Part shown: positions 1-15,556 of the stretch, one piece after another
Numbering within the stretch: the stretch's first letter is position 1
Layout: the number at the start of each line of letters is the position of its first letter
Source of the DNA: Escherichia coli
Lineage (GTDB): Bacteria > Pseudomonadota > Gammaproteobacteria > Enterobacterales > Enterobacteriaceae
DNA length: 64,000 nucleotides
Assembly: GCF_030013595.1 (NCBI RefSeq)
Contig: NZ_CP122768.1
Strand: one strand, 5' to 3'
Notes under the pieces: model-generated
Databases searched by the model: none
What the model saw: the letters and a program-made list of their open reading frames with translations, nothing else
What the model was told of the DNA's origin: nothing
Translations under genes and position numbers: made by a program

Positions 1-424
1 ATCACTCTCCGGTGCCGGAGGGTGGCTTGGTACGGTCGGCGGATGGATTTCGGGGGCAGTGGCAAACGCAAAAGGTGGTGTTTACACATCGGCAAATCTG
101 AGTGCTTACAGTAACACTATTGTGGATACACCGACGTATTTTGCTTTTGCGAAAGGTGCCGGGCTGATGGGTGAGGCCGGGCCTGAAGCAATCATGCCAC
201 TGACACGGGCAGCGGACGGCTCTCTTGGGGTCAGGGCCATTGGAAATGTGAATGGTGGCGGTGGATTTGTTTATTCTCCCGTGTATCACATCAGCATTCA
301 GAATCAAGGGAGCAATGGCGAGATAGATGCGCGCTCAGCCAGGGGACTGGTGGATCTGATCGACAGCAGGGTTGTGTCAATTATGCAGTCATCGCGTCGG
401 GATGGAGGATTGTACAGTGCCTGA
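1..424 (+). CDS. H: Tail tape measure protein, C-terminal fragment (lambda H-like); 5' end outside window
   Basis: Open frame runs from window edge (frame of pos 2) to TGA at 422-424; position immediately upstream of M/L/K/I/J as in lambda. Confidence 0.6.
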   Translation, partial: SLSGAGGWLGTVGGWISGAVANAKGGVYTSANLSAYSNTIVDTPTYFAFAKGAGLMGEAGPEAIMPLTRAADGSLGVRAIGNVNGGGGFVYSPVYHISIQNQGSNGEIDARSARGLVDLIDSRVVSIMQSSRRDGGLYSA

Positions 425-758
425 GCCTGAAGTTTTTAACTGGATCCCCCGTGAGGGGATGGAGACGACACGAAAGCCATCAGTTATTACGGTAAAGTTT
501 GGTGACGGATATGAACAGCGACGGGCTGGTGGCCTGAATGCGGATCTGAAAACGTTTAAACCGGTATTTCGTGTCACAGATGAATATTCCCGTGCCGCGC
601 TGGACAGTTTTTTATCCCGTCATGCCGGGATTCGTGCTTTTTTGTGGCGTCCGCCAAAACACAACAGGACTGTCCGGGTTGTCTGCAGGGAGTGGAGCAT
701 TTCGGATAATGCCATGTATACCGATTTTAACTGTACCTTTGAAGAGGTCACTCACTGA
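417..758 (+). CDS. M: Minor tail protein M
   Basis: Translation contains the FGDGYxQR...GLNAxLKT...FLWxPP pattern of lambda M; GTG at 417 preceded by GGAGGA (404-409) at ideal spacing, so likely start rather than ORF-track start 372. Confidence 0.7.
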   Translation: MPEPEVFNWIPREGMETTRKPSVITVKFGDGYEQRRAGGLNADLKTFKPVFRVTDEYSRAALDSFLSRHAGIRAFLWRPPKHNRTVRVVCREWSISDNAMYTDFNCTFEEVTH

Positions 759-1456
759 TGCAGGGTATACAGCAGGAAACACTCAATGAGTGCACTAAAA
801 CGGAGCAATCCGCGCTGGTCGTGCTCTGGGAAATTGATCTGACAGAGGTCGGCGGAGAACGTTATTTCTTCTGTAATGAGCAGAACGAAAAAGGTGAACC
901 AGTCACCTGGCAGGGGCGGCAGTATCAGGCTTATCCCATTCAGGGAAGCGGATTTGAGATGAACGGCAAAGGAGCCAGTGCAAGGCCAACGCTTAAAGTC
1001 TCTAATCTGTACGGCATGGTCACCGGGATGGCGGAAGATTTGCAGAGTCTGGTCGGCGGAACGGTGGTCCGGCGTAAGGTTTACGCCCGTTTTCTGGATG
1101 CGGTGAACTTCGTCAACGGAAACAGCGAAGCCGATCCGGAGCAGGAGATTATCAGCCGCTGGCGCATCGAGCAGTGTAGCAATTTAACAGCGGTAAGTGC
1201 CTCCTTTGTACTGTCCACGCCGACGGAAACGGATGGCGCTGTTTTTCCGGGACGTATCATGCTGGCCAACACCTGCACCTGGACCTATCGCGGTGATGAG
1301 TGCGGTTATCACGGTCCGGCGGTCGCGGATGAATATGACCAGCCGACGTCCGATATCACGAAGGATAAATGCAGCAAATGCCTGAGCGGTTGTAAGTTCC
1401 GCAATAACGTCGGCAACTTTGGTGGCTTCCTTTCCATTAACAAACTTTCGCAGTAA
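758..1456 (+). CDS. L: Minor tail protein L
   Basis: 232 aa, near-identical in length and sequence to lambda L as recalled (MQ..QETLNEC...CSKCLSGCKFRNNVGNFGGFLSINKLSQ); start overlaps M stop (TGATG). Confidence 0.9.
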   Translation: MQGIQQETLNECTKTEQSALVVLWEIDLTEVGGERYFFCNEQNEKGEPVTWQGRQYQAYPIQGSGFEMNGKGASARPTLKVSNLYGMVTGMAEDLQSLVGGTVVRRKVYARFLDAVNFVNGNSEADPEQEIISRWRIEQCSNLTAVSASFVLSTPTETDGAVFPGRIMLANTCTWTYRGDECGYHGPAVADEYDQPTSDITKDKCSKCLSGCKFRNNVGNFGGFLSINKLSQ

Positions 1457-1461
1457 ATCCC

Positions 1462-2205
1462 ATGACACAGACAGAATCAGCGATTCTGGCGCACGCCCGG
1501 CGATGTGCGCCAGCGGAGTCGTGCGGCTTCGTGGTAAGCACGCCGGAGGGGGAAAGATATTTCCCCTGCGTGAATATCTCCGGTGAGCCGGAGGCGTATT
1601 TCCGTATGTCGCCGGAAGACTGGCTGCAGGCAGAAATGCAGGGTGAGATTGTGGCGCTGGTCCACAGCCACCCCGGTGGTCTGCCCTGGCTGAGTGAGGC
1701 CGACCGGCGGCTGCAGGTGCAGAGTGATTTGCCGTGGTGGCTGGTTTGCCGGGGGGCGATTCACAAGTTCCGCTGTGTGCCACATCTTTCCGGGCGGCGC
1801 TTTGAGCACGGGGTGACGGACTGTTACACGCTGTTCCGGGATGCTTACCATCTGGCGGGGATTGAGATGCCGGATTTTCATCGCGAGGATGACTGGTGGC
1901 GTCACGGTCAGAATCTCTATCTGGATAATCTGGAGGCCACAGGGCTGTATCAGGTGCCGTTGTCAGCGGCGCAGCCGGGCGATGTGCTGCTGTGCTGTTT
2001 TGGTTCATCGGTGCCGAATCATGCCGCCATTTACTGTGGTGACAGCGAGCTGCTGCACCATATTCCTGAACAACTGAGCAAACGAGAGAGGTACACCGAC
2101 AAATGGCAGCGACGCACACACTCCCTCTGGCGTCACCGGGCATGGCACGCATCTGCCTTTACGGGGATTTGCAACGATTTGGCCGCCGCATCGACCTTCG
2201 AGTGA
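1462..2205 (+). CDS. K: Tail tip assembly protein K (JAMM/MPN plus NlpC/P60 domains)
   Basis: Lambda K-like sequence; JAMM motif HSHPGGLPWLSEAD (HxHx7Sx2D) and NlpC/P60-type Cys (GVTDCYTLF) and His (NHAAIY) visible; 3' end overlaps I. Confidence 0.85.
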   Translation: MTQTESAILAHARRCAPAESCGFVVSTPEGERYFPCVNISGEPEAYFRMSPEDWLQAEMQGEIVALVHSHPGGLPWLSEADRRLQVQSDLPWWLVCRGAIHKFRCVPHLSGRRFEHGVTDCYTLFRDAYHLAGIEMPDFHREDDWWRHGQNLYLDNLEATGLYQVPLSAAQPGDVLLCCFGSSVPNHAAIYCGDSELLHHIPEQLSKRERYTDKWQRRTHSLWRHRAWHASAFTGICNDLAAASTFE

Positions 2206-2750
2206 AAACGGGGTCCGAAGCCATCCGGGCGCTGGCCATGCAGAACCCGGCGTTTCGTCAGAAACTGAGCGACGGCTGGTACCAGGTACGCATTGCCGGG
2301 CGTGATGCAGGTGAAACCGAATTGTCTGCCCGTCTTAATGAGCCGCTGGCAAATGGTGCCGTGATCCACATCGTGCCGCGTCTGGCGGGAGCTAAAAGTG
2401 GCGGTGTTTTTCAGGCAGTGCTGGGTGCGGCGCTGATTGCGGTGGCATGGTGGAACCCTGTGGGCTGGCTGGGTGCCGCGGCTGTATCGGGCATGTATGC
2501 GGCAGGGGCCAGTATGATCCTGGGCGGTGTTGCACAGATGCTGGCCCCTAAACCCAAAACTCCCCGCACACAGACAACGGATAACGGCAAACAGAACACC
2601 TATTTTTCTTCACTGGATAATATGGTTGCCCAGGGCAATGTTCTGCCCGTTCTGTACGGTGAAATGCGCGTGGGATCACGTGTGGTATCTCAGGAGATCA
2701 GCACAGCAGATGAAGGTGATGGTGGTCAGGTTGTGGTGATTGGTCGCTGA
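2103..2750 (+). CDS. I: Tail assembly protein I
   Basis: N-terminus MAATHTLPLASPGMARICLYGDLQRFGRRIDLRVKTG and C-terminus ...VVSQEISTADEGDGGQVVVIGR match lambda I as recalled; overlaps K 3' end. Confidence 0.85.
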   Translation: MAATHTLPLASPGMARICLYGDLQRFGRRIDLRVKTGSEAIRALAMQNPAFRQKLSDGWYQVRIAGRDAGETELSARLNEPLANGAVIHIVPRLAGAKSGGVFQAVLGAALIAVAWWNPVGWLGAAAVSGMYAAGASMILGGVAQMLAPKPKTPRTQTTDNGKQNTYFSSLDNMVAQGNVLPVLYGEMRVGSRVVSQEISTADEGDGGQVVVIGR

Positions 2751-2770
2751 TGCAAAATGTTTTATGTGAA

Positions 2771-2796
2771 ACCGCCTGCGGGCGGTTTTGTCGTTT
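2771..2796 (+). terminator. Hairpin plus T-tract (ACCGCC-TGCG-GGCGGT-TTTGTCGTTT) between I and J; terminator-like element inside the late tail operon
   Basis: Inverted repeat followed by T-rich run read directly from sequence. Confidence 0.3.
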
Positions 2797-2807
2797 CTGG
2801 AGCGTGA

Positions 2808-6209
<3,402 letters not shown>

Positions 6210-6227
6210 ATTTTATAATCCATAACG

Positions 6228-6251
6228 GGCGTCAGAAATGACGCCTTTTTT
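6228..6251 (+). terminator. Intrinsic terminator downstream of J (GGCGTCA-GAAA-TGACGCC + T6)
   Basis: Perfect 7-bp stem, 4-nt loop, followed by TTTTTT. Confidence 0.55.
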
Positions 6252-6275
6252 ATTGCAGAAAAGCGAGAGGTAATT

Positions 6276-6875
6276 ATGCGTAAACTTTATGCCGCCATTT
6301 TGTCCGCAGCCATTTGTCTGGCCGTATCCGGTGCGCCTGCATGGGCGTCTGAGCAGCAGGCCACGCTGAGCGTGGGGTATCTTCATGCCCGGACGAACGT
6401 TCCCGGCAGTGATGATCTGAACGGGATTAACGTGAAATACCGTTATGAGTTTACGGACACACTGGGGATGGTGACGTCATTCAGCTATGCAGGAGACAAG
6501 AATCGCCAGCTGACCCATTACAGCGATACCCGCTGGCATGAAGATTCCGTTCGTAACCGCTGGTTCAGCGTAATGGCGGGGCCGTCTGTGCGCGTGAATG
6601 AATGGTTCAGCGCGTATGCGATGGCGGGTGTGGCTTACAGCCGTGTGTCGACTTTCTCCGGGGATTATCTCCGCGTAACTGACAACAAGGGGAAAACGCA
6701 CGACGTGCTGACCGGAAGTGATGACGGTCGCCACAGCAACACGTCTCTGGCGTGGGGAGCTGGCGTGCAGTTTAACCCGACCGAATCCGTGGCCATTGAT
6801 ATTGCTTATGAAGGCTCCGGCAGTGGCGACTGGCGCACTGACGGTTTCATCGTGGGTGTCGGTTATAAGTTCTGA
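6276..6875 (+). CDS. lom: Outer membrane protein Lom (Ail/Lom/PagC family beta-barrel), prophage moron
   Basis: 199 aa with signal peptide (MRKLYAAILSAAICLAVSGAPAWA) and C-terminal ...GFIVGVGYKF; matches lambda Lom as recalled; flanked by terminators. Confidence 0.85.
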   Translation: MRKLYAAILSAAICLAVSGAPAWASEQQATLSVGYLHARTNVPGSDDLNGINVKYRYEFTDTLGMVTSFSYAGDKNRQLTHYSDTRWHEDSVRNRWFSVMAGPSVRVNEWFSAYAMAGVAYSRVSTFSGDYLRVTDNKGKTHDVLTGSDDGRHSNTSLAWGAGVQFNPTESVAIDIAYEGSGSGDWRTDGFIVGVGYKF

Positions 6876-6901
6876 TTAGCCAGGTAACACAGTGTTATGA
6901 C

Positions 6902-6929
6902 AGCCCGCCGGTTCAGGCGGGCTTTTTTG
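6902..6929 (+). terminator. Intrinsic terminator downstream of lom (AGCCCGCC-GGTTCA-GGCGGGCT + T6)
   Basis: 8-bp perfect stem followed by TTTTTTGT. Confidence 0.55.
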
Positions 6930-6939
6930 TGGGGTGAAT

Positions 6940-9900
6940 ATGGCAGTAAAGATTTCAGGTGTACTGAAAGACGGCACAGGAAAACCGGTACAGAACTGCA
7001 CAATCCAGCTGAAAGCAAAACGTAACAGCACCACGGTGGTGGTGAACACGCTGGCCTCAGAAAATCCGGATGAAGCCGGGCGTTACAGCATGGACGTTGA
7101 GTACGGTCAGTACAGCGTTATTCTGTTGGTGGAAGGATTCCCGCCGTCACATGCCGGGACCATCACCGTGTATGAAGATTCCCGACCCGGTACGCTGAAT
7201 GATTTTCTCGGTGCCATGACGGAGGATGATGCCCGTCCGGAGGCACTGCGCCGTTTTGAACTGATGGTGGAAGAGGTGGCGCGTAACGCGTCCGCGGTGG
7301 CACAGAACACGGCAGCCGCGAAGAAGTCAGCCAGCGATGCCGGCACATCAGCCCGTGAGGCGGCAACCCATGCGACTGATGCTGCAGGCTCAGCACGCGC
7401 AGCCAGCACGTCAGCCGGACAGGCCGCGTCGTCGGCTCAGTCAGCGTCTTCCAGCGCAGGAACGGCATCAACAAAGGCCACTGAAGCGGAAAAAAGTGCT
7501 GCCGCTGCAGAGTCCTCAAAAAGCGCGGCGGCCACCAGTGCCGGTGCGGCGAAAACGTCAGAAACGAATGCCGCAGCGTCACAACAATCAGCAGCCACTT
7601 CTGCATCCACCGCGACTACGAAAGCGTCAGAAGCTGCCACCTCAGCCCGGGATGCGGCGGCCTCAAAAGAGGCAGCGAAATCATCAGAAACGAACGCATC
7701 CTCGAGCGCCAGTAGCGCAGCTTCCTCGGCAACGGCGGCAGGAAATTCCGCGAAGGCGGCAAAAACGTCAGAGACGAACGCCAGGTCTTCTGAAACGGCA
7801 GCGGGACAGAGCGCCTCGGCTGCGGCAGGCTCAAAAACAGCGGCTGCATCATCTGCCAGTGCAGCGTCAACAAGTGCCGGGCAGGCCTCAGCCAGTGCCA
7901 CCGCCGCCGGAAAATCGGCAGAAAGCGCCGCATCGTCTGCTTCAACAGCCACAACGAAGGCTGGCGAAGCCACTGAACAGGCCAGCGCAGCAGCGAGGTC
8001 TGCTTCCGCAGCGAAGACATCCGAAACGAACGCGAAAGCGTCGGAAACCAGCGCAGAATCCTCAAAAACGGCAGCCGCATCGTCCGCCAGTTCGGCAGTG
8101 TCATCGGCATCATCTGCGTCTGCTTCAAAAGATGAGGCGACCAGACAGGCGTCAGCAGCGAAGGGCAGCGCCACGACGGCATCCACGAAGGCGACAGAGG
8201 CAGCTGGCAGTGCGAGGGCAGCAGCTCAGAGCAAAAGTACGGCGGAATCTGCAGCAACGCGCGCTGAGACAGCGGCAAAACGGGCAGAGGATATTGCATC
8301 CGCCGTGGCGCTTGAGGATGCGAGCACGACGAAAAAGGGGATAGTACAGCTCAGCAGTGCGACCAACAGTACGTCTGAAACGCTGGCGGCAACGCCAAAG
8401 GCAGTAAAATCAGCCTATGACAATGCAGAGAAACGTCTGCAGAAAGACCAGAACGGCGCTGATATACCCGATAAGGGACGCTTCCTGAACAACATTAACG
8501 CGGTCAGTAAAACAGACTTTGCTGATAAGCGTGGTATGCGTTATGTGCGGGTTAACGCTCCTGCAGGTGCAACATCTGGAAAATATTACCCTGTTGTTGT
8601 TATGCGTTCTGCTGGCTCAGTAAGCGAACTGGCATCAAGGGTCATTATCACCACGGCAACGCGAACCGCAGGCGATCCGATGAATAACTGCGAGTTTAAC
8701 GGGTTTGTTATGCCTGGTGGCTGGACTGACAGGGGGCGTTATGCTTATGGAATGTTCTGGCAATATCAAAACAATGAACGAGCCATCCACTCAATAATGA
8801 TGAGTAATAAGGGCGATGATTTGCGCTCTGTGTTCTATGTTGATGGTGCTGCTTTCCCTGTTTTTGCGTTTATTGAAGATGGCCTGTCAATATCCGCACC
8901 TGGTGCTGATCTCGTTGTTAATGATACGACCTATAAGTTTGGGGCAACAAATCCAGCGACGGAATGTATCGCGGCGGACGTTATCCTTGATTTTAAGAGT
9001 GGCCGTGGTTTTTATGAGTCCCATTCGTTAATCGTTAACGATAACTTGTCGTGCAAAAAACTTTTTGCCACAGACGAAATTGTAGCGCGTGGTGGTAATC
9101 AGATTCGAATGATAGGTGGGGAGTATGGTGCATTATGGCGTAATGATGGCGCTAAAACTTACCTGCTGCTTACCAATCAAGGTGATGTTTATGGTGGCTG
9201 GAATACATTAAGACCGTTTGCTATTGATAACGCAACCGGCGAACTGGTTATTGGAACCAAACTGTCCGCAAGTCTGAACGGTAATGCATTAACAGCAACA
9301 AAGCTGCAAACGCCAAGACTGGTTTCTGGGGTTGAGTTTGATGGTTCCAGAGATATTACTTTAACCGCTGCGCATGTTGCTGCTTTTGCCAGAAGAGCAA
9401 CGGATACGTATGCCGATGCGGATGGGGGCGTTCCCTGGAATGCCGAATCAGGCGCTTACAATGTCACCCGCTCTGGCAACAGCTATATTCTGGTTAACTT
9501 CTATACCGGAGTCGGAAGTTGCCGGACATTGCAGATGAAGGCGCATTACAGAAATGGAGGTCTGTTCTACCGTTCCTCAAGAGATGGCTATGGTTTTGAG
9601 GAAGACTGGGCAGAAGTTTATACCTCGAAAAATCTTCCACCAGAAAGCTACCCAGTCGGCGCACCAATCCCGTGGCCATCAGATACCGTTCCGTCTGGTT
9701 ATGCCCTGATGCAGGGGCAGACTTTTGACAAATCTGCTTACCCGAAACTTGCAGCCGCTTATCCGTCAGGCGTGATCCCTGATATGCGTGGCTGGACGAT
9801 TAAGGGCAAACCTGCCAGTGGTCGGGCCGTATTGTCTCAGGAACAGGACGGCATTAAATCGCACACCCACAGCGCCAGCGTATCCAGTACGGATTTGGGG

Positions 9901-10293
9901 ACGAAAACCACATCGTCGTTTGATTACGGCACTAAATCCACGAATAACACCGGGGCGCATACGCACAGTGTGAGCGGTACAGCCGCAAGTGCCGGAAACC
10001 ATACTCATAGTGTCACAGGCGCATCAGCAGTCAGCCAGTGGTCACAAAATGGGTCAGTACATAAGGTAGTGTCTGCGGCCAGTGTGAATACAAGTGCTGC
10101 AGGAGCACACACTCATAGTGTCAGCGGCACAGCTGCATCTGCAGGTGCTCACGCACATACTGTCGGTATTGGTGCTCATACGCACTCTGTTGCGATTGGC
10201 TCACATGGACACACTATCACCGTTAACGCTGCTGGTAACGCGGAAAACACCGTCAAAAACATCGCATTTAACTACATTGTGAGGCTTGCATAA
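6940..10293 (+). CDS. stf: Side tail fibre protein (Stf family), ~1117 aa
   Basis: N-terminus [24 protein letters not shown] and C-terminus ...[31 protein letters not shown] match lambda Stf as recalled; ATG at 6940 rather than ORF-track GTG at 6934; contains A/S/T-rich repeat block and HxH repeats. Confidence 0.85.
7261..8341 (+). repeat. Degenerate tandem coding repeat (Ala/Ser/Thr-rich, recurring AAKTSETNA / SAAxSASxATTKAxEA units) inside stf
   Basis: Motif KTSETNA or KSSETNA recurs at least four times in the translated ORF; low-complexity A/S/T composition over ~360 aa. Confidence 0.6.
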
Positions 10294-10877
10294 TGGCATT
10301 CAGAATGAGTGAACAACCACGGACCATAAAAATTTATAATCTGCTGGCCGGAACTAATGAATTTATTGGTGAAGGTGATGCATATATTCCGCCTCATACA
10401 GGTCTGCCAGCAAACAGTACCGATATTGCACCGCCAGATATTCCGGCTGACTTTGTGGCTGTTTTCAACAGTGATGAGGCATCGTGGCATCTCGTTGAAG
10501 ACCATCGGGGTAAAACAGTTTATGACGTGGCATCAGGGGACGCGTTATTTATTTCTGAACTCGGTCCGTTACCGGAAAATGTTACCTGGTTATCGCCGGA
10601 AGGGGAATATCAGAAGTGGAACGGCACAGCCTGGGTGAAAGATGCAGAAGCAGAAAAACTATTCCGGATCCGGGAAGCGGAAGAAACAAAAAACAGCTTG
10701 ATGCAGGTAGCCAGTGAGCATATAGCGCCGCTTCAGGATGCTGTAGATCTGGAGATCGCAACGGAGGAAGAAAACTCGTTGCTGGAAGCCTGGAAGAAGT
10801 ATCGGGTGTTGCTGAACCGTGTTGATACATCAACTGCACCTGATATTGAGTGGCCGGAAGAACCAGACACAATGTAA
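10293..10877 (+). CDS. tfa: Tail fibre assembly protein Tfa
   Basis: 194 aa; [44 protein letters not shown]... matches lambda Tfa as recalled; start overlaps stf stop. Confidence 0.9.
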
Positions 10878-11034
10878 GCGAAAAAGAAAAACCGCAGACA
10901 CGACGTATGCAGGACGTGCTGCGGTTGGCTGGTGAACTTTCGATAGTGCGAGTATTGAATGATTTCCAGCCGTTATTGATTTTATATAACTGTAGTGGAG
11001 TTATTCAACACACAGGCAAAACGGAATAATCTGA

Positions 11035-11073
11035 GAAAAAAGCGTGCTTCGCCAATCAGGGGGGCGAAGCACG
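11035..11073 (-). terminator. Terminator-like hairpin (CGTGCTTCGCC...GGCGAAGCACG) with T-tract on the minus strand, in the tfa-ssrA junction
   Basis: 11-bp inverted repeat preceded on + strand by A6 (T6 on minus strand after the stem). Confidence 0.4.
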
Positions 11074-11243
11074 TCTGAATGACACCTGAAAATTTCCCGT
11101 CCGTTAAGTGTCCGCCCCGAGAGAAGTGGGGAACCATAACACCCTGTCGGGACGCAGAAAGAAACAACACAACTTGCAGGGATATTTCTCGATACTGCGT
11201 CAATGGTGGGGGATGTTAAATTATTACACTTAGTTACAAATAG

Positions 11244-11277
11244 AAAAGCCTCTGACTTCATAAGCAGAGGCTTTTCT
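11244..11277. terminator. Bidirectional terminator-like hairpin (AAAAGCCTCTG-loop-CAGAGGCTTTT) in the tfa-ssrA junction
   Basis: 11-bp inverted repeat flanked by A-run upstream and T-run downstream. Confidence 0.4.
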
Positions 11278-11395
11278 TAAATGCGCGTGCATTTTGCGTG
11301 TATATTTTTGTCTTTTTCTGGTCCGCTCACTGTCTGGTCAGTGTCCATAAGTGACTGTTTTTATAGTCTCTGTCTGGTTGTGGTCCTGTCAAAAG

Positions 11396-11758
11396 TGGTG
11401 GAGCTGGCGGGAGTTGAACCCGCGTCCGAAATTCCTACGTCCTCGGTACTACATGCTTAGTCAGTCTTTACATTCGCTTGCCAGCTGCGGACGGACACGC
11501 CACTAACAAACTAGCCTGATTAAGTTTTAACGCTTCAACCCCAGGCAGGGCTTCCACGCGATCTCTTTTGGGTTTGACCTCTCTTGATCCCCGTCCTAAG
11601 AGCGGAGGCTAGGGAGAGAGGGCTCTAAGCAGGTTATTAAGCTGCTAAAGCGTAGTTTTCGTCGTTTGCGACTATTTTTTGCGGCTTTTTACGAGGCCAA
11701 CCGCCCCTCGGCATGCACCTTGGGTTTCGCAAATCCCGTCGAATCCAGAATCAGCCCC
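11396..11758 (-). ncRNA. ssrA: tmRNA (SsrA, transfer-messenger RNA), 363 nt
   Basis: Reverse complement reads GGGGCTGATTCTGGATTCGACGGGATTTGCGAAACCCAAGGTGCATGCC...GGTTCAACTCCCGCCAGCTCCACCA, i.e. full-length E. coli tmRNA including encoded CCA. Confidence 0.95.
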
Positions 11759-11972
11759 AATGTGTAACGGTAAGTATACCAGATTCATGAGTGCCATGAC
11801 CAGCCTCAATGGCGTTATCGTTAAAGATTTAGCACCCATGTAGCCTGATTTTTATTCGATTAAGCAATGGGATGGCAACATTTGTGTCGGATGTGATAGC
11901 CAATAAGATGTTCATTCGCGCCGCCGGAGAGGGAGGCGCGGTGAGGAACTGGTCAATAATTGGAGTGCAGGT

Positions 11973-12455
11973 TTAACGGTGGGCGTTTTTCATGATACGC
12001 GCTTTATCCACCTGCCATTCGCGCTCTTTGATATCTGAACGTTTATCGTGCTGTTTCTTACCTTTGGCGACGCCGATTTTCACTTTGCACCAGGCATTTT
12101 TCCAGTACAGGGAGAGCGCCACTACGGTATAGCCTTCTCGATTGACGCGACCGTACAATGAGTCCAGTTCGCGCTGGTTGAGAAGTAACTTGCGGGTACG
12201 GGTAGGATCGCACACCACATGCGTGGAGGCCACAGCCATTGGCGTGATGTTAGCGCCAAACAGAAATGCCTCTCCGTCACGCAGAAGGACGTAGCTGTCG
12301 CTGATATTGGCTTTTCCTGCGCGCAGGGATTTAACCTCCCAGCCTTGCAGGGCAAGTCCCGCCTCGAACTCTTCTTCGATAAAGTATTCGTGCCGGGCGC
12401 GCTTGTTAAGCGCGATGGTCGCTGAACCAGGTTTATGTGCTTTTTTCTTCGTCAT
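11973..12455 (-). CDS. smpB: SsrA-binding protein SmpB
   Basis: 160 aa, [45 protein letters not shown]...; adjacent to and co-oriented with ssrA. Confidence 0.95.
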
Positions 12456-12586
12456 AAGCGTCGTGAATCATCGGTAATCTGAAATCGAAAACACCCCATA
12501 TCAATCCTGCGGGGGACAAGGCTCTATCTTAGCATGAACCCGATGTTACCCAGCGCCGGGATAGCGTTTTTTTTACAGCAGGATAA

Positions 12587-13063
12587 ATGATATTATTTGT
12601 TGGATTTTTGTTGATGGAAATTGTTATGCCTCAGATTAGCCGGACCGCACTGGTACCCTACAGCGCGGAGCAAATGTATCAGTTAGTGAATGACGTTCAG
12701 TCTTATCCTCAGTTTTTGCCGGGTTGTACCGGAAGTCGGATTCTGGAGTCCACTCCTGGGCAGATGACTGCGGCGGTAGATGTCTCTAAGGCTGGGATCA
12801 GCAAAACGTTTACTACCCGCAACCAGTTGACCAGTAACCAAAGTATTCTTATGAATCTGGTGGATGGGCCGTTCAAGAAATTGATCGGTGGATGGAAGTT
12901 TACGCCGCTGAGCCAGGAGGCGTGTCGTATCGAGTTTCATCTCGATTTTGAGTTTACCAATAAGTTGATTGAACTCGCCTTTGGTCGCGTGTTTAAAGAG
13001 CTGGCGGCTAATATGGTCCGGGCTTTTACGGTTCGTGCGAAAGAGGTTTACAGTGCCAGGTAA
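12587..13063 (+). CDS. ratA: Ribosome association toxin RatA (SRPBCC/PasT family)
   Basis: 158 aa matching recalled K-12 RatA/YfjG; start may be the internal ATG at 12626 (MPQISR...). Confidence 0.85.
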
Positions 13064-13343
13064 AATTGCCGTTGAGGTGGCTTATGCGCTACCTGAGAAG
13101 CAGTACCTGCAGCGCGTGACGCTGCAGGAGGGCGCGACGGTTGAAGAAGCTATTCGCGCCAGTGGTTTGCTGGAATTGCGTACCGATATCGATTTAACTA
13201 AAAACAAAGTCGGCATTTACAGCCGTCCGGCCAAACTGAGCGATACCGTGCATGATGGCGATAGGGTGGAGATTTATCGTCCTCTCATTGCCGATCCGAA
13301 AGAGCTGCGCAGGCAACGAGCAGAAAAATCAGCGAATAAATAA
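13053..13343 (+). CDS. ratB: RatB / YfjF (RnfH-family protein), 96 aa
   Basis: GTG start at 13053 giving [41 protein letters not shown]...; overlaps ratA 3' end; ORF-track start 12969 is an upstream extension. Confidence 0.8.
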
Positions 13344-13350
13344 CAGACAG

Positions 13351-13379
13351 AAAAAAGGTGCTCATTGAGCACCTTTTTT
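13351..13379. terminator. Bidirectional intrinsic terminator between convergent ratB and bamE (AGGTGCTCA-loop-TGAGCACCT, A5 upstream, T5 downstream)
   Basis: Inverted repeat with flanking A and T runs. Confidence 0.6.
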
Positions 13380-13404: not shown

Positions 13405-13746
13405 TTAGTTACCACTCAGCGCAGGTTTATTATCAATATTGGTCAACACCCCGCTACTATTAAAGGTCAGCGTCAGCGTTTGCTGCGTTACACCTTCATG
13501 ACCTGGTTGCTGGCGGAAGACATAGAACCAGGTATTCGTACCAAATGGATCGGACATCAGCGGTGTACCCAATGCGTACGCAACTTGTTGTTGCGTCATG
13601 CCAACGCGTATTTTGGATACGTCGTTAGCGGTCAGATAATTCCCTTGGTTGATATCAGGACGGTAAACCACTCGCTCCAGAGTGGAACAGCCTGCGGTCA
13701 ACATCAATAGTACTGCTGCTGCAGCAGTCAGCGTTTTACAGCGCAT
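13405..13746 (-). CDS. bamE: Outer membrane protein assembly factor BamE (SmpA lipoprotein)
   Basis: 113 aa, lipoprotein signal (LTAGCS), sequence matches recalled BamE. Confidence 0.95.
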
Positions 13747-13894: not shown

Positions 13895-15556
13895 TTACGC
13901 CGCAAGTAGTTCTTTCGCATTCGCCAGTGTGTTACGTGTGACTTCACTGCCACCAAGCAGGCGCGCCAGCTCTTGTAACCGCGCTTTTTTATCCAGGGAT
14001 TGCATATGCGTTTCTGTCATCGCACCATCGGTTTCTTTGCTGACAAAATAGTGTTGATGACCACATCCCGCGACTTGTGGCAGGTGGGTAACACACATCA
14101 CCTGAGTTGATTCGCCAAGTTGACGCAGCAGTTTGCCGACAACTGCCGCTGTTGGACCGCTAATCCCTACATCCACTTCATCAAAAATCAGTGCCGGGGT
14201 TTCCATTTTACGCGCCGTGATGACCTGAATTGCCAATGCGATGCGGGACAATTCACCACCGGATGCAACTTTGGCAATAGGCTGCATTGGCTGACCTGGG
14301 TTGGTGGTTACCCGAAACTCAATACGATCAGCGCCGTCAGCGCCCAGGTGATGCTCGTCAAATTTAATATCGATCGTAAACTGCCCATGTGGCATAGAGA
14401 GCGCATGCATACTTTTGGTGATCAGCTGTGCCAACTCATTTGCATAATGCTGGCGTTGCAGGTGTAATGCGTGCGCGGTTTCCAGTGCCTGCTGATGATG
14501 TTTCGTTACCGCCAGCGCGAGCGTTTCTTGTGAGTCGGCCTGATCGTCCAGTTGCTGCTGTTCTTCCAGTAGCGACTGGTAATACTGTGGCAATGCCTCA
14601 GGGCTGACGTGATGTTTACGTGCCAGCGAAATCTGTTTTGAGATGCGCTGTTCAAGTTCAAACAGTCGGTTGGGATCGAGATCCAGACGATCGCAGTAGT
14701 GGCGCAGTTCATCGCTGGCTTCAGTAATCTGGATGGTAGCTTCTTCCAGCATATCAAGTACGCCGGACAGTTTGCTGTCCATGCCAATCAATTCGCTCAC
14801 CAGTTGTTTAGCCGTGTAAAGCTGACTTTGCAGGTTTGCGTCTTCACCGTCGGCCATTACTGCCAATGCATTCTGGCTGGTAGTCAGCAATTGACCGCTG
14901 TTCGCCAGACGTTTGTACTCTTCGTCGATTTGCTCAAACTCTCCGGGCTGCGGATTAAATTCGTTAAGTTCTTTTAATTGGTATTGCAGCAGTTCTGCAC
15001 GGGCGGCGCGTTCCTGACTTAACTGTTGATGATGCGCGAGGTCACGGCAGCTTTGATGCCACAACTGATAACGTGCGGTCATTTCCTGGAGTAGAGAGGT
15101 TTCATTGGCATAGCCATCAAGCAGGAATTTTTGGTGCTCGGGTTTGGTGAGTAACTGATGAGCGTGCTGACCATGGATCTGAATCAGCAACTGACCCAGT
15201 TCGCGCAGTTGTGAAAGAGGAACCGCTGTACCGTTGATAAAACCACGGGAGCGACCATCGCTGCTGATTACGCGACGAAGCAAACATTCATGCCCGTCTT
15301 CAAGCTGGTTTTCTTCCAGCCAGCGCAGGGCCGCTGGCGTATCTTTCAGAGAAAAACGGGCGCACAGGTCGGCACGAGCAGCGCCGGTACGCACCATGTC
15401 GGCTTCAGCGCGACCACCGAGACAAAGGCCGAGGGCATCTATTGCAATAGATTTACCCGCGCCGGTCTCGCCAGTTATTACGGTCATGCCGCTATGAAAA
15501 TCAATCTCAAGCTCACGAACGATAGCAAAGTTGCTGATGGTCAGTTGTGCCAACAT
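13895..15556 (-). CDS. recN: DNA repair protein RecN
   Basis: 553 aa, N-terminal Walker A (GETGAGKS), SMC-like coiled coil, matches recalled RecN. Confidence 0.95.

Follow-up and report, generated by a model that had tools for sequence, protein, structure and literature searches.

Described systems related to the ratA-ratB locus

The ratA and ratB genes of Escherichia coli form a small operon next to smpB, the gene of the SsrA-binding protein. In K-12 they are listed as yfjG (b2619) and yfjF (b2618), and in the uropathogenic E. coli (UPEC) strain CFT073 the same genes are named pasT-pasI. The copy considered here is located in a 64,000-nucleotide stretch of E. coli DNA (contig NZ_CP122768.1; below, the window). 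The span 11973-13343 of the window covers smpB plus ratA-ratB, and the transfer-messenger RNA (tmRNA) gene ssrA falls outside it. The cluster is very probably a set of housekeeping core genes and not a toxin–antitoxin (TA) system. It comprises the smpB-ssrA ribosome rescue genes, a Coq10-type RatA translated from position 12626, and a co-expressed RnfH-like RatB. Both the locus and this reinterpretation of RatA are already known, and the cluster is textbook E. coli core genome.

Type II TA systems such as MazEF and RelBE share with ratA-ratB the small overlapping two-gene operon, and in both cases one annotated product inhibits growth on overexpression. The differences are that ratA-ratB is a core, syntenic locus, that RatB lacks a DNA-binding domain, makes no complex with RatA and is dispensable, and that the toxic product does not come from the native promoter.

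The second related system is the Coq10 family. Fino et al. (2020; PMC7424257) describe RatA/PasT as a Coq10 homologue, with no toxicity at any expression level and no link between PasT and PasI. Deletion mutants had respiratory and oxidative-stress defects, which human Coq10 complements. The K-12 ratA mutant forms small colonies and grows poorly on succinate, and it is rescued by Q2, ubiB or human Coq10 (PMC7424257; preprint 10.64898/2026.05.04.722385). The preprint further reports that RatA binds ubiquinone-8 (Q8) and interacts with the Ubi metabolon, and its authors propose renaming the protein UbiM. According to the same work, ratB deletion is viable, ratB expression collapses on ratA deletion, and the function of RatB is elusive. 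The two genes do not always occur together. An accompanying ratB is confined to beta- and gammaproteobacteria, and in most lineages, mitochondria included, ratA is found without it (PMC7424257). The Q8 binding, the respiratory phenotypes and the complementation by human Coq10 are thus taken from the literature; K-12 RatA, the basis of the published functional data, differs from the RatA of the window by one residue.

The relatives of RatB are subunits of redox complexes. The Rnf1 complex of Azotobacter vinelandii has RnfH as a cytoplasmic subunit without cofactor, in contact with RnfB and with a long helix of RnfC (PMC12174285). In a bacterial two-hybrid assay, the Legionella homologue of RatB bound an RnfB homologue (PMC11445079). 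The genomic neighbourhood has also been described. Iyer et al. (2006; PMC1779556) reported the association of smpB with genes for a START protein, RnfH and SmpA across beta- and gammaproteobacteria, and Hudson et al. (2014; PMC4131195) found it among the commonest smpB neighbours. The smpB-ratAB neighbourhood is therefore not new.

Organization of the locus

Features were placed by open reading frame (ORF) listing, sequence reading and ARAGORN, and the proteins were identified by Pfam and NCBIfam profile searches above curated cut-offs. The elements of the cluster are the following:

11973-12455, minus strand: smpB, SsrA-binding protein, 160 aa (Pfam PF01668 SmpB, E=1.5e-57; NCBIfam equivalog NF003843, 222 bits against a cut-off of 130)
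12456-12625, no strand: divergent control region from the smpB ATG to the real ratA ATG, including 39 nt mis-annotated in K-12 as ratA codons 1-13
12587-13063, plus strand: long ratA ORF of the K-12 gene model, 158 aa (Pfam Polyketide_cyc PF03364, E=1.8e-38)
12588-12596, plus strand: putative extended -10 element of the ratA promoter, TG-A-TATTAT, from cross-species comparison
12626-13063, plus strand: real ratA coding sequence (pasT, yfjG; proposed ubiM), 145 aa, START/SRPBCC fold, Coq10 homologue
13040-13045, plus strand: ratB Shine-Dalgarno sequence AAGAGG within ratA, from direct sequence reading
13053-13343, plus strand: ratB (yfjF, pasI), 96 aa, GTG start (Pfam PF03658 Ub-RnfH, E=1.9e-35)
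11396-11758, minus strand: ssrA (tmRNA), from ARAGORN (Rfam RF00023 at full length, 292.8 bits; tag ANDENYALAA)

The identities of smpB, ratA and ratB are established by these matches. An initial annotation, made from the sequence alone, had named ratA and ratB, assigned RatA to the SRPBCC family, placed the pair divergently from smpB and let ratB begin at a GTG overlapping the 3′ end of ratA. The Pfam, NCBIfam and PDB matches and the ORF strands agree with this description, and the GTG lies at 13053. The overlap of ratA and ratB is 11 nt, with the ratB start within the final ratA codons (..TAC AGT GCC AGG TAA). The Shine-Dalgarno sequence lies 7 nt upstream of the GTG, and the AAGAGGTnTACAGTG block at this site is present in all 12 of the commonest ratA-ratB junction strings listed. 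Because both the GTG and the Shine-Dalgarno sequence of ratB lie within ratA, the arrangement suggests translational coupling of the two genes. On the other side of the control region, SmpB is full-length and above both cut-offs, and the tmRNA carries the ANDENYALAA tag and covers the complete Rfam model, as in a SmpB-tmRNA trans-translation system. The divergent smpB and ratA genes are 131 nt apart in the old annotation and 170 nt apart when the distance is measured to the real ratA start.

Translation start and promoter of ratA

The start of ratA was examined by comparison between species. A scan with one genome per species provided 80 Enterobacteriaceae loci, and 79 species, anchored on the start of the tblastn match, were used in the start analysis. 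The ATG at 12626, the 'Met14' of K-12, is invariant in all 80 loci. The 12 codons between 'Met1' (12587) and Met14 contain an in-frame stop in 23 of the 79 species. In 12 of the 79, the distance between the promoter block and the ATG differs by ±1 nt. Variability by codon position is without periodicity over the codons from Met1 to Met14 (1.03/1.21/1.00), as against 0.09/0.09/1.04 in the next 14 codons. The whole of 12456-12625 varies in this manner between species, except for the promoter and Shine-Dalgarno blocks.

The conserved part of the leader has the form of a promoter. The pattern TGnTAnnAT is found in 79/79 loci, 37-39 nt before the ATG, and its form in the window is TGATATTAT (12588-12596), an extended -10 sigma-70 element. 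It is part of the conserved block GATAAATGnTATTATTT, which is preceded by a T-tract (12567-12574 in the window). The 'Met1' ATG itself (12587-12589) shares its TG with the extended -10 element, and this, not a start of translation, is why it is kept in 67/79 loci. A ATGGAAAT-like conserved stretch just before the real ATG is the likely ribosome-binding site. The automatic promoter scan missed the ratA promoter, which has no good -35 hexamer, and the element was found by the cross-species comparison. Existing annotation points to the same start: PGAP annotates the 438-nt form, and the alignment of the NCBIfam model to the long RatA ORF begins at residue 14. On the comparative evidence, promoter and leader, and not coding sequence, make up the first 13 codons of the 158-aa ORF (12587-12625), and the ATG at 12626 is the real start of ratA.

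The same conclusion has been reached by experiment in K-12. In that work (Fasnacht et al. 2025; PMC11988751), a -10 box was placed inside the annotated ratA ORF, the transcription start site was mapped downstream of Met1, and mutations of the -10 box abolished the mRNA. M1S and M14I mutants were examined, and the M1S change was found to weaken the ratA promoter. The published -10 box probably corresponds to bases 12588-12596, as judged from the comparative analysis together with the verbal description in the paper. The mapping carries over to the window because the region is 100% identical to that of K-12. The comparison is an independent confirmation of the experimentally revised start. This start test, which combines an invariant ATG, the TGnTATTAT block, in-frame stops and lost periodicity over 79 species, could be applied to other doubtful starts.

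Another candidate for the N-terminal extension was a signal peptide, for which a SignalP prediction is noted in PMC11988751. It was rejected on account of the M1S/M14I results and the missing coding conservation of the extension.

Two further observations concern this region. At 12552-12577 on the plus strand, just upstream of the ratA -10 element, a short GC stem-loop leads into a tract of 8-9 T, and this T-tract is highly conserved across species. It might act as an UP-like element for ratA or as a signal tied to the divergent smpB promoter. The RefSeq record of K-12 keeps the long ratA model under the name 'ribosome association toxin RatA', and genomes annotated by PGAP carry the short model, still named a toxin.

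Conservation and core-genome status

The cluster is a fixed component of the species. Of 5426 complete E. coli genomes, 5425 carry the 2.5-kb block, and the median number of places per genome is one. Among the Enterobacteriaceae species, ratB directly follows ratA in 80/80 loci, smpB is divergent from ratA in 79/79, and bamE is convergent downstream of ratB in all 78 evaluable loci. The sequence changes within the genes are mostly confined to the third codon position. The variability of ratA over 140 codons is 0.22/0.12/1.14 bits lost by codon position, and that of ratB is 0.42/0.30/1.29. Near-universal presence, fixed synteny and wobble-dominated variation together mark smpB/ratA-ratB as a vertically inherited housekeeping cluster of the E. 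coli core genome, and not as a mobile TA module. The patchy, multi-copy or mobile distribution of type II TA systems is not seen at this locus, which is single-copy with fixed synteny. PADLOC defence-system models gave no match for SmpB, RatA or RatB.

The junction of the two genes shows small variations. In 77/80 loci the ratB GTG occupies the aligned position, and the remaining 3 have it 6 nt upstream. A RatA of 147 aa, with two extra C-terminal codons, is found in 8 species, including Citrobacter-type loci (L010, L011, L012). In at least 3 of these 8 species the ratB GTG is 6 nt further upstream, so that the overlap is 17 nt and not 11. One species locus has a truncated ratB of 47 codons.

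RatA as a Coq10 homologue

RatA matches the START/Polyketide_cyc profile PF03364 from end to end of the profile (1-126 of 126) with 132 bits against a cut-off of 23.4. The match to the PDB structure 1t17 extends over 137 residues (E=1.6e-19). This structure, of Caulobacter CC1736, is the structural prototype for proteins of the Coq10 type. RatA therefore shares with the Coq10/CC1736 family the profile, the structure match and, from the published work, functional equivalence. Unlike Coq10, it is bacterial and cytosolic and lacks a mitochondrial targeting sequence. Beta- and gammaproteobacteria also co-transcribe ratA with an RnfH-type gene, a partner that Coq10 does not have.

RatB as an RnfH-type ubiquitin-like protein

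RatB matches only one domain, Ub-RnfH PF03658, which aligns with residues 5-87 of 96 over the complete profile (1-83 of 83) with 121.4 bits against a cut-off of 23.7. The NCBIfam equivalog NF002490 gives 154.7 bits (cut-off 75). The structural matches are PDB 2hj1, a UPF0125 protein of the HI0395 type (E=3.2e-28), and chain H of 8ahx, which is RnfH (E=1.4e-13). RatB is thus a stand-alone beta-grasp domain that exceeds the family threshold. The K-12 record calls yfjF a 'putative component of the Rsx system', which is an annotation only. From the RnfH structure match, the Azotobacter and Legionella precedents and this annotation, the best guess is that RatB may act as a small adaptor for a redox subunit of the RnfB/RsxB type, expressed in step with RatA. 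Two differences from the described relatives should be mentioned. RatB is encoded with ratA and smpB and not in an rnf/rsx operon, and compared with RnfH and 2hj1 proteins it has a basic C-terminal tail past the domain.

In the housekeeping cluster, the parts very probably work as follows. SmpB together with the tmRNA from the downstream ssrA gene provides trans-translation for ribosome rescue. A sigma-70 promoter with the extended -10 element at 12588-12596 drives a short-leader ratA-ratB mRNA, divergently from smpB. Translation from the ATG at 12626 yields the 145-aa RatA, a START/SRPBCC lipid-binding protein and bacterial homologue of Coq10. The GTG inside the 3′ end of ratA is the start of ratB, and the Shine-Dalgarno sequence also lies inside ratA, which would couple the expression of ratB to that of ratA. 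RatB, a cofactor-less protein of the RnfH type, would be an accessory adaptor that docks on an RnfB/RsxB-type subunit of a membrane redox complex, and not an antitoxin.

The toxin–antitoxin interpretation

The initial annotation had presented ratA-ratB as a ribosome-targeting toxin pair, a label that was repeated because NCBIfam and RefSeq names still say 'toxin'. In this interpretation, ratA-ratB is a type II TA system in which RatA blocks 70S ribosomes by binding to the 50S subunit and RatB is the antitoxin, and the proximity of smpB-ssrA would fit. The NCBIfam equivalog NF007999 bears the name 'type II toxin-antitoxin system RatA family toxin', and 'toxin' is also the word used in the RefSeq and K-12 annotations. 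The overlapping two-gene operon resembles a TA module, and the smpB neighbourhood is conserved.

The form of RatA that is toxic speaks against this interpretation. Toxicity requires the 13 N-terminal codons, which lie upstream of the mapped transcription start site and appear as promoter and leader in the species comparison. Overexpression of the annotated ORF yields two proteins, of which only the Met1 form is toxic, and the Met1 form shows no specific co-sedimentation with 50S subunits (PMC11988751). Only the non-toxic 145-aa form was detected under all conditions tested, and the native promoter gives rise to the Met14 form only (PMC11988751). The toxicity of RatA is thus artefactual and stems from overexpression of the long form, a mis-annotation (PMC11988751), and Fino et al. 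saw no toxic effect of RatA at any level of expression (PMC7424257).

The properties of RatB and the distribution of the pair lead to the same result. As recounted in PMC7424257 and 10.64898/2026.05.04.722385, the original authors found no RatA-RatB complex and no neutralisation. The viability of the ratB deletion (10.64898/2026.05.04.722385) is not expected of an antitoxin gene in this interpretation, nor is the occurrence of ratA without ratB in most lineages, including mitochondria. The DNA-binding domains of antitoxins (helix-turn-helix, ribbon-helix-helix or AbrB) are missing from RatB, for which the profile search returned the beta-grasp domain Ub-RnfH only and PADLOC no match. The locus is a single-copy core locus with fixed synteny, unlike the mobile and patchy TA modules.

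Several points nevertheless weigh against the housekeeping explanation, and some of them speak for a toxin. As far as later papers relate it, the original 2011 study reported 50S binding and inhibited 70S formation. Overexpression of the annotated 158-aa ORF causes growth arrest and fewer polysomes (PMC11988751). Norton and Mulvey, as cited in 10.64898/2026.05.04.722385, reported that in liquid culture the long form was relieved of its toxicity when pasI was overexpressed alongside it. An open, ATG-initiated extension is kept in 53/79 species, and an upstream promoter may make the long RatA form under some condition. The evidence for a Q8 shuttle (10.64898/2026.05.04.722385) is a preprint. RatB escaped detection by its investigators, and every deletion phenotype is complemented by ratA alone. 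Finally, the respiration model gives no reason for the tight linkage of ratA-ratB and smpB across beta- and gammaproteobacteria.

Considering both sides, a type II TA function of ratA-ratB is extremely improbable, and such a function under native conditions is essentially already refuted. The toxin label is not borne out by the published work, by the core gene set, by the extension that serves as promoter, or by the domain content of RatB. The toxin names nevertheless persist in K-12, RefSeq and NCBIfam, and counts of TA systems or cloning of the annotated ORF inherit the artefact.

Pairing of ratA-ratB with smpB and ssrA

The layout smpB<->ratA-ratB->|<-bamE is invariant in 78-80 Enterobacteriaceae species and known across beta- and gammaproteobacteria (PMC1779556). 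One explanation would be a second, translation-linked role of ratA-ratB, in which a TGS-like RatB binds tmRNA, the ribosome or SmpB, or in which the shared control region co-regulates rescue and respiration. Iyer et al. proposed a possible interaction of RnfH and tmRNA (PMC1779556), and Fino et al. leave room for a moonlighting function at the ribosome (PMC7424257). The shared 170-nt region also contains a conserved ATAAATGnTATTATTT block, which is overlapped by promoter-like hexamers on the minus strand. These minus-strand matches are weak (9 of 12), however, and their -35 region lacks conservation. All phenotypes of ratAB deletion concern respiration, and ratA or human Coq10 rescues them (PMC7424257; 10.64898/2026.05.04.722385); no experiment connects RatA or RatB with trans-translation. 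The RnfH partners reported so far are subunits of redox complexes and not RNA, and unrelated housekeeping genes are often conserved neighbours. A translation-linked second role is therefore considered very unlikely. It is very improbable as well that the invariant pairing round one promoter block reflects a real functional link, either as an action of RatB on tmRNA-SmpB rescue or as co-regulation of ubiquinone delivery and rescue. The role of RatB and the constant back-to-back placement of smpB are the modest questions raised by the locus.

The housekeeping cluster itself is not uniform on the ssrA side. Within the DNA examined beyond smpB, ssrA is present in only 35 of the 73 evaluable species. 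In the other 38, smpB is followed by a BapA-like giant adhesin with immunoglobulin-like (Ig) repeats or by its type I secretion genes (ABC/HlyD). Examples are Citrobacter, Salmonella arizonae, Trabulsiella, Kluyvera, Buttiauxella and Yokenella. The adhesin or secretion genes occupy positions 1 to ~2350 of their loci (L007, L019, L020, L026, L039, L061, L073, L080 and 30 more). The adjacency of smpB and ssrA is thus less conserved than that of smpB and ratAB. A technical failure to detect ssrA, which blastn found in 36/80 loci, was considered and ruled out by ARAGORN and direct reading.

Comparison with K-12 and neighbouring genes

The genes surrounding the cluster are placed as follows:

13351-13379, both strands: bidirectional intrinsic terminator between the convergent ratB and bamE, from the terminator scan, a perfect 13-bp stem with flanking A-run and T-run (AAAAAAGGTGCTCAATGAGCACCTTTTTT)
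13405-13746, minus strand: bamE (smpA), convergent with ratB (Pfam BamE, E=1.2e-27, and an NCBIfam equivalog)
13895-15556, minus strand: recN, from the ORF listing

The conserved K-12 arrangement, claimed at the outset and to be checked by alignment, is confirmed. The block from ssrA to recN aligns with K-12 without gaps at 98.27% nucleotide identity, and the K-12 record has the identical gene order and strands. The smpB, ratA and ratB genes share order, strands and overlap with their K-12 counterparts and differ by point substitutions only. The SmpB and BamE proteins have 0 amino acid differences, RatA has the single change Q145R (in the 158-aa numbering) and RatB the single change S65T. The control region 12456-12625 is identical in 170/170 nt.

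Some differences are found in the flanking genes. RecN differs from K-12 in 10 residues, six of which are clustered in codons 360-381 (I360T, R362H, Q366L, Q370H, E373N and D381K; window 14416-14479, minus strand). The cluster lies in the coiled-coil region and looks like a small recombination patch. The sole difference in ssrA is at position 11438, 43 nt from the 3′ end, which is C in the window and T in K-12. The position falls in the part of ssrA usually replaced by the copy that integrating phages bring with them. Three more substitutions occur at 11770-11793, just upstream of ssrA, in a region with a promoter-like site whose second hexamer is TATACT.

The prophage at the 3′ end of ssrA

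The identity to K-12 breaks off precisely where ssrA ends with its 3′ CCA (position 11396). Beyond this point lies a lambda-like prophage whose tail-fibre end is turned toward ssrA. K-12 has at this place the P4-like cryptic prophage CP4-57, whose integrase adjoins ssrA. The main features of the prophage are:

2811-6209, 6276-6875 and 6934-10293: largest prophage ORFs, from the ORF listing
10293-10877: tail fibre assembly gene, from the ORF listing and profile search

Lambda-like tail genes fill the window from 1 to ~10877 and end 518 nt from ssrA. The tail module matches phages such as 2H10 and mEp332 over 78-88% of the 11.4-kb query with ~95-96% identity. The prophage (window 1-11395) faces the 3′ end of ssrA with the tail-fibre end and not with the integrase, and it extends past the left edge of the window. 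Within the 64 kb of the window, no second copy of the ssrA 3′ end, as would mark the other attachment site, was found, the prophage continuing past the left edge. The junction of prophage and ssrA (593 nt) is shared by only 8/5426 complete E. coli genomes, the closest of which (99.8%) are porcine enterotoxigenic E. coli (ETEC) strains.

The description of the ssrA 3′ end as a prophage integration hotspot proves sound. In addition to the prophage of the window and CP4-57, P4-type integrases lie ~200 nt beyond ssrA in 15 other species, and a set of 32 sequences of the 600 nt beyond ssrA divides into 19 unrelated groups. A minor observation within the prophage is a full-length match to the Rfam candidate small RNA IS009 (10636-10834, 213.9 bits) inside the tail fibre assembly gene, which probably reflects the conservation of the phage gene rather than an independent RNA.

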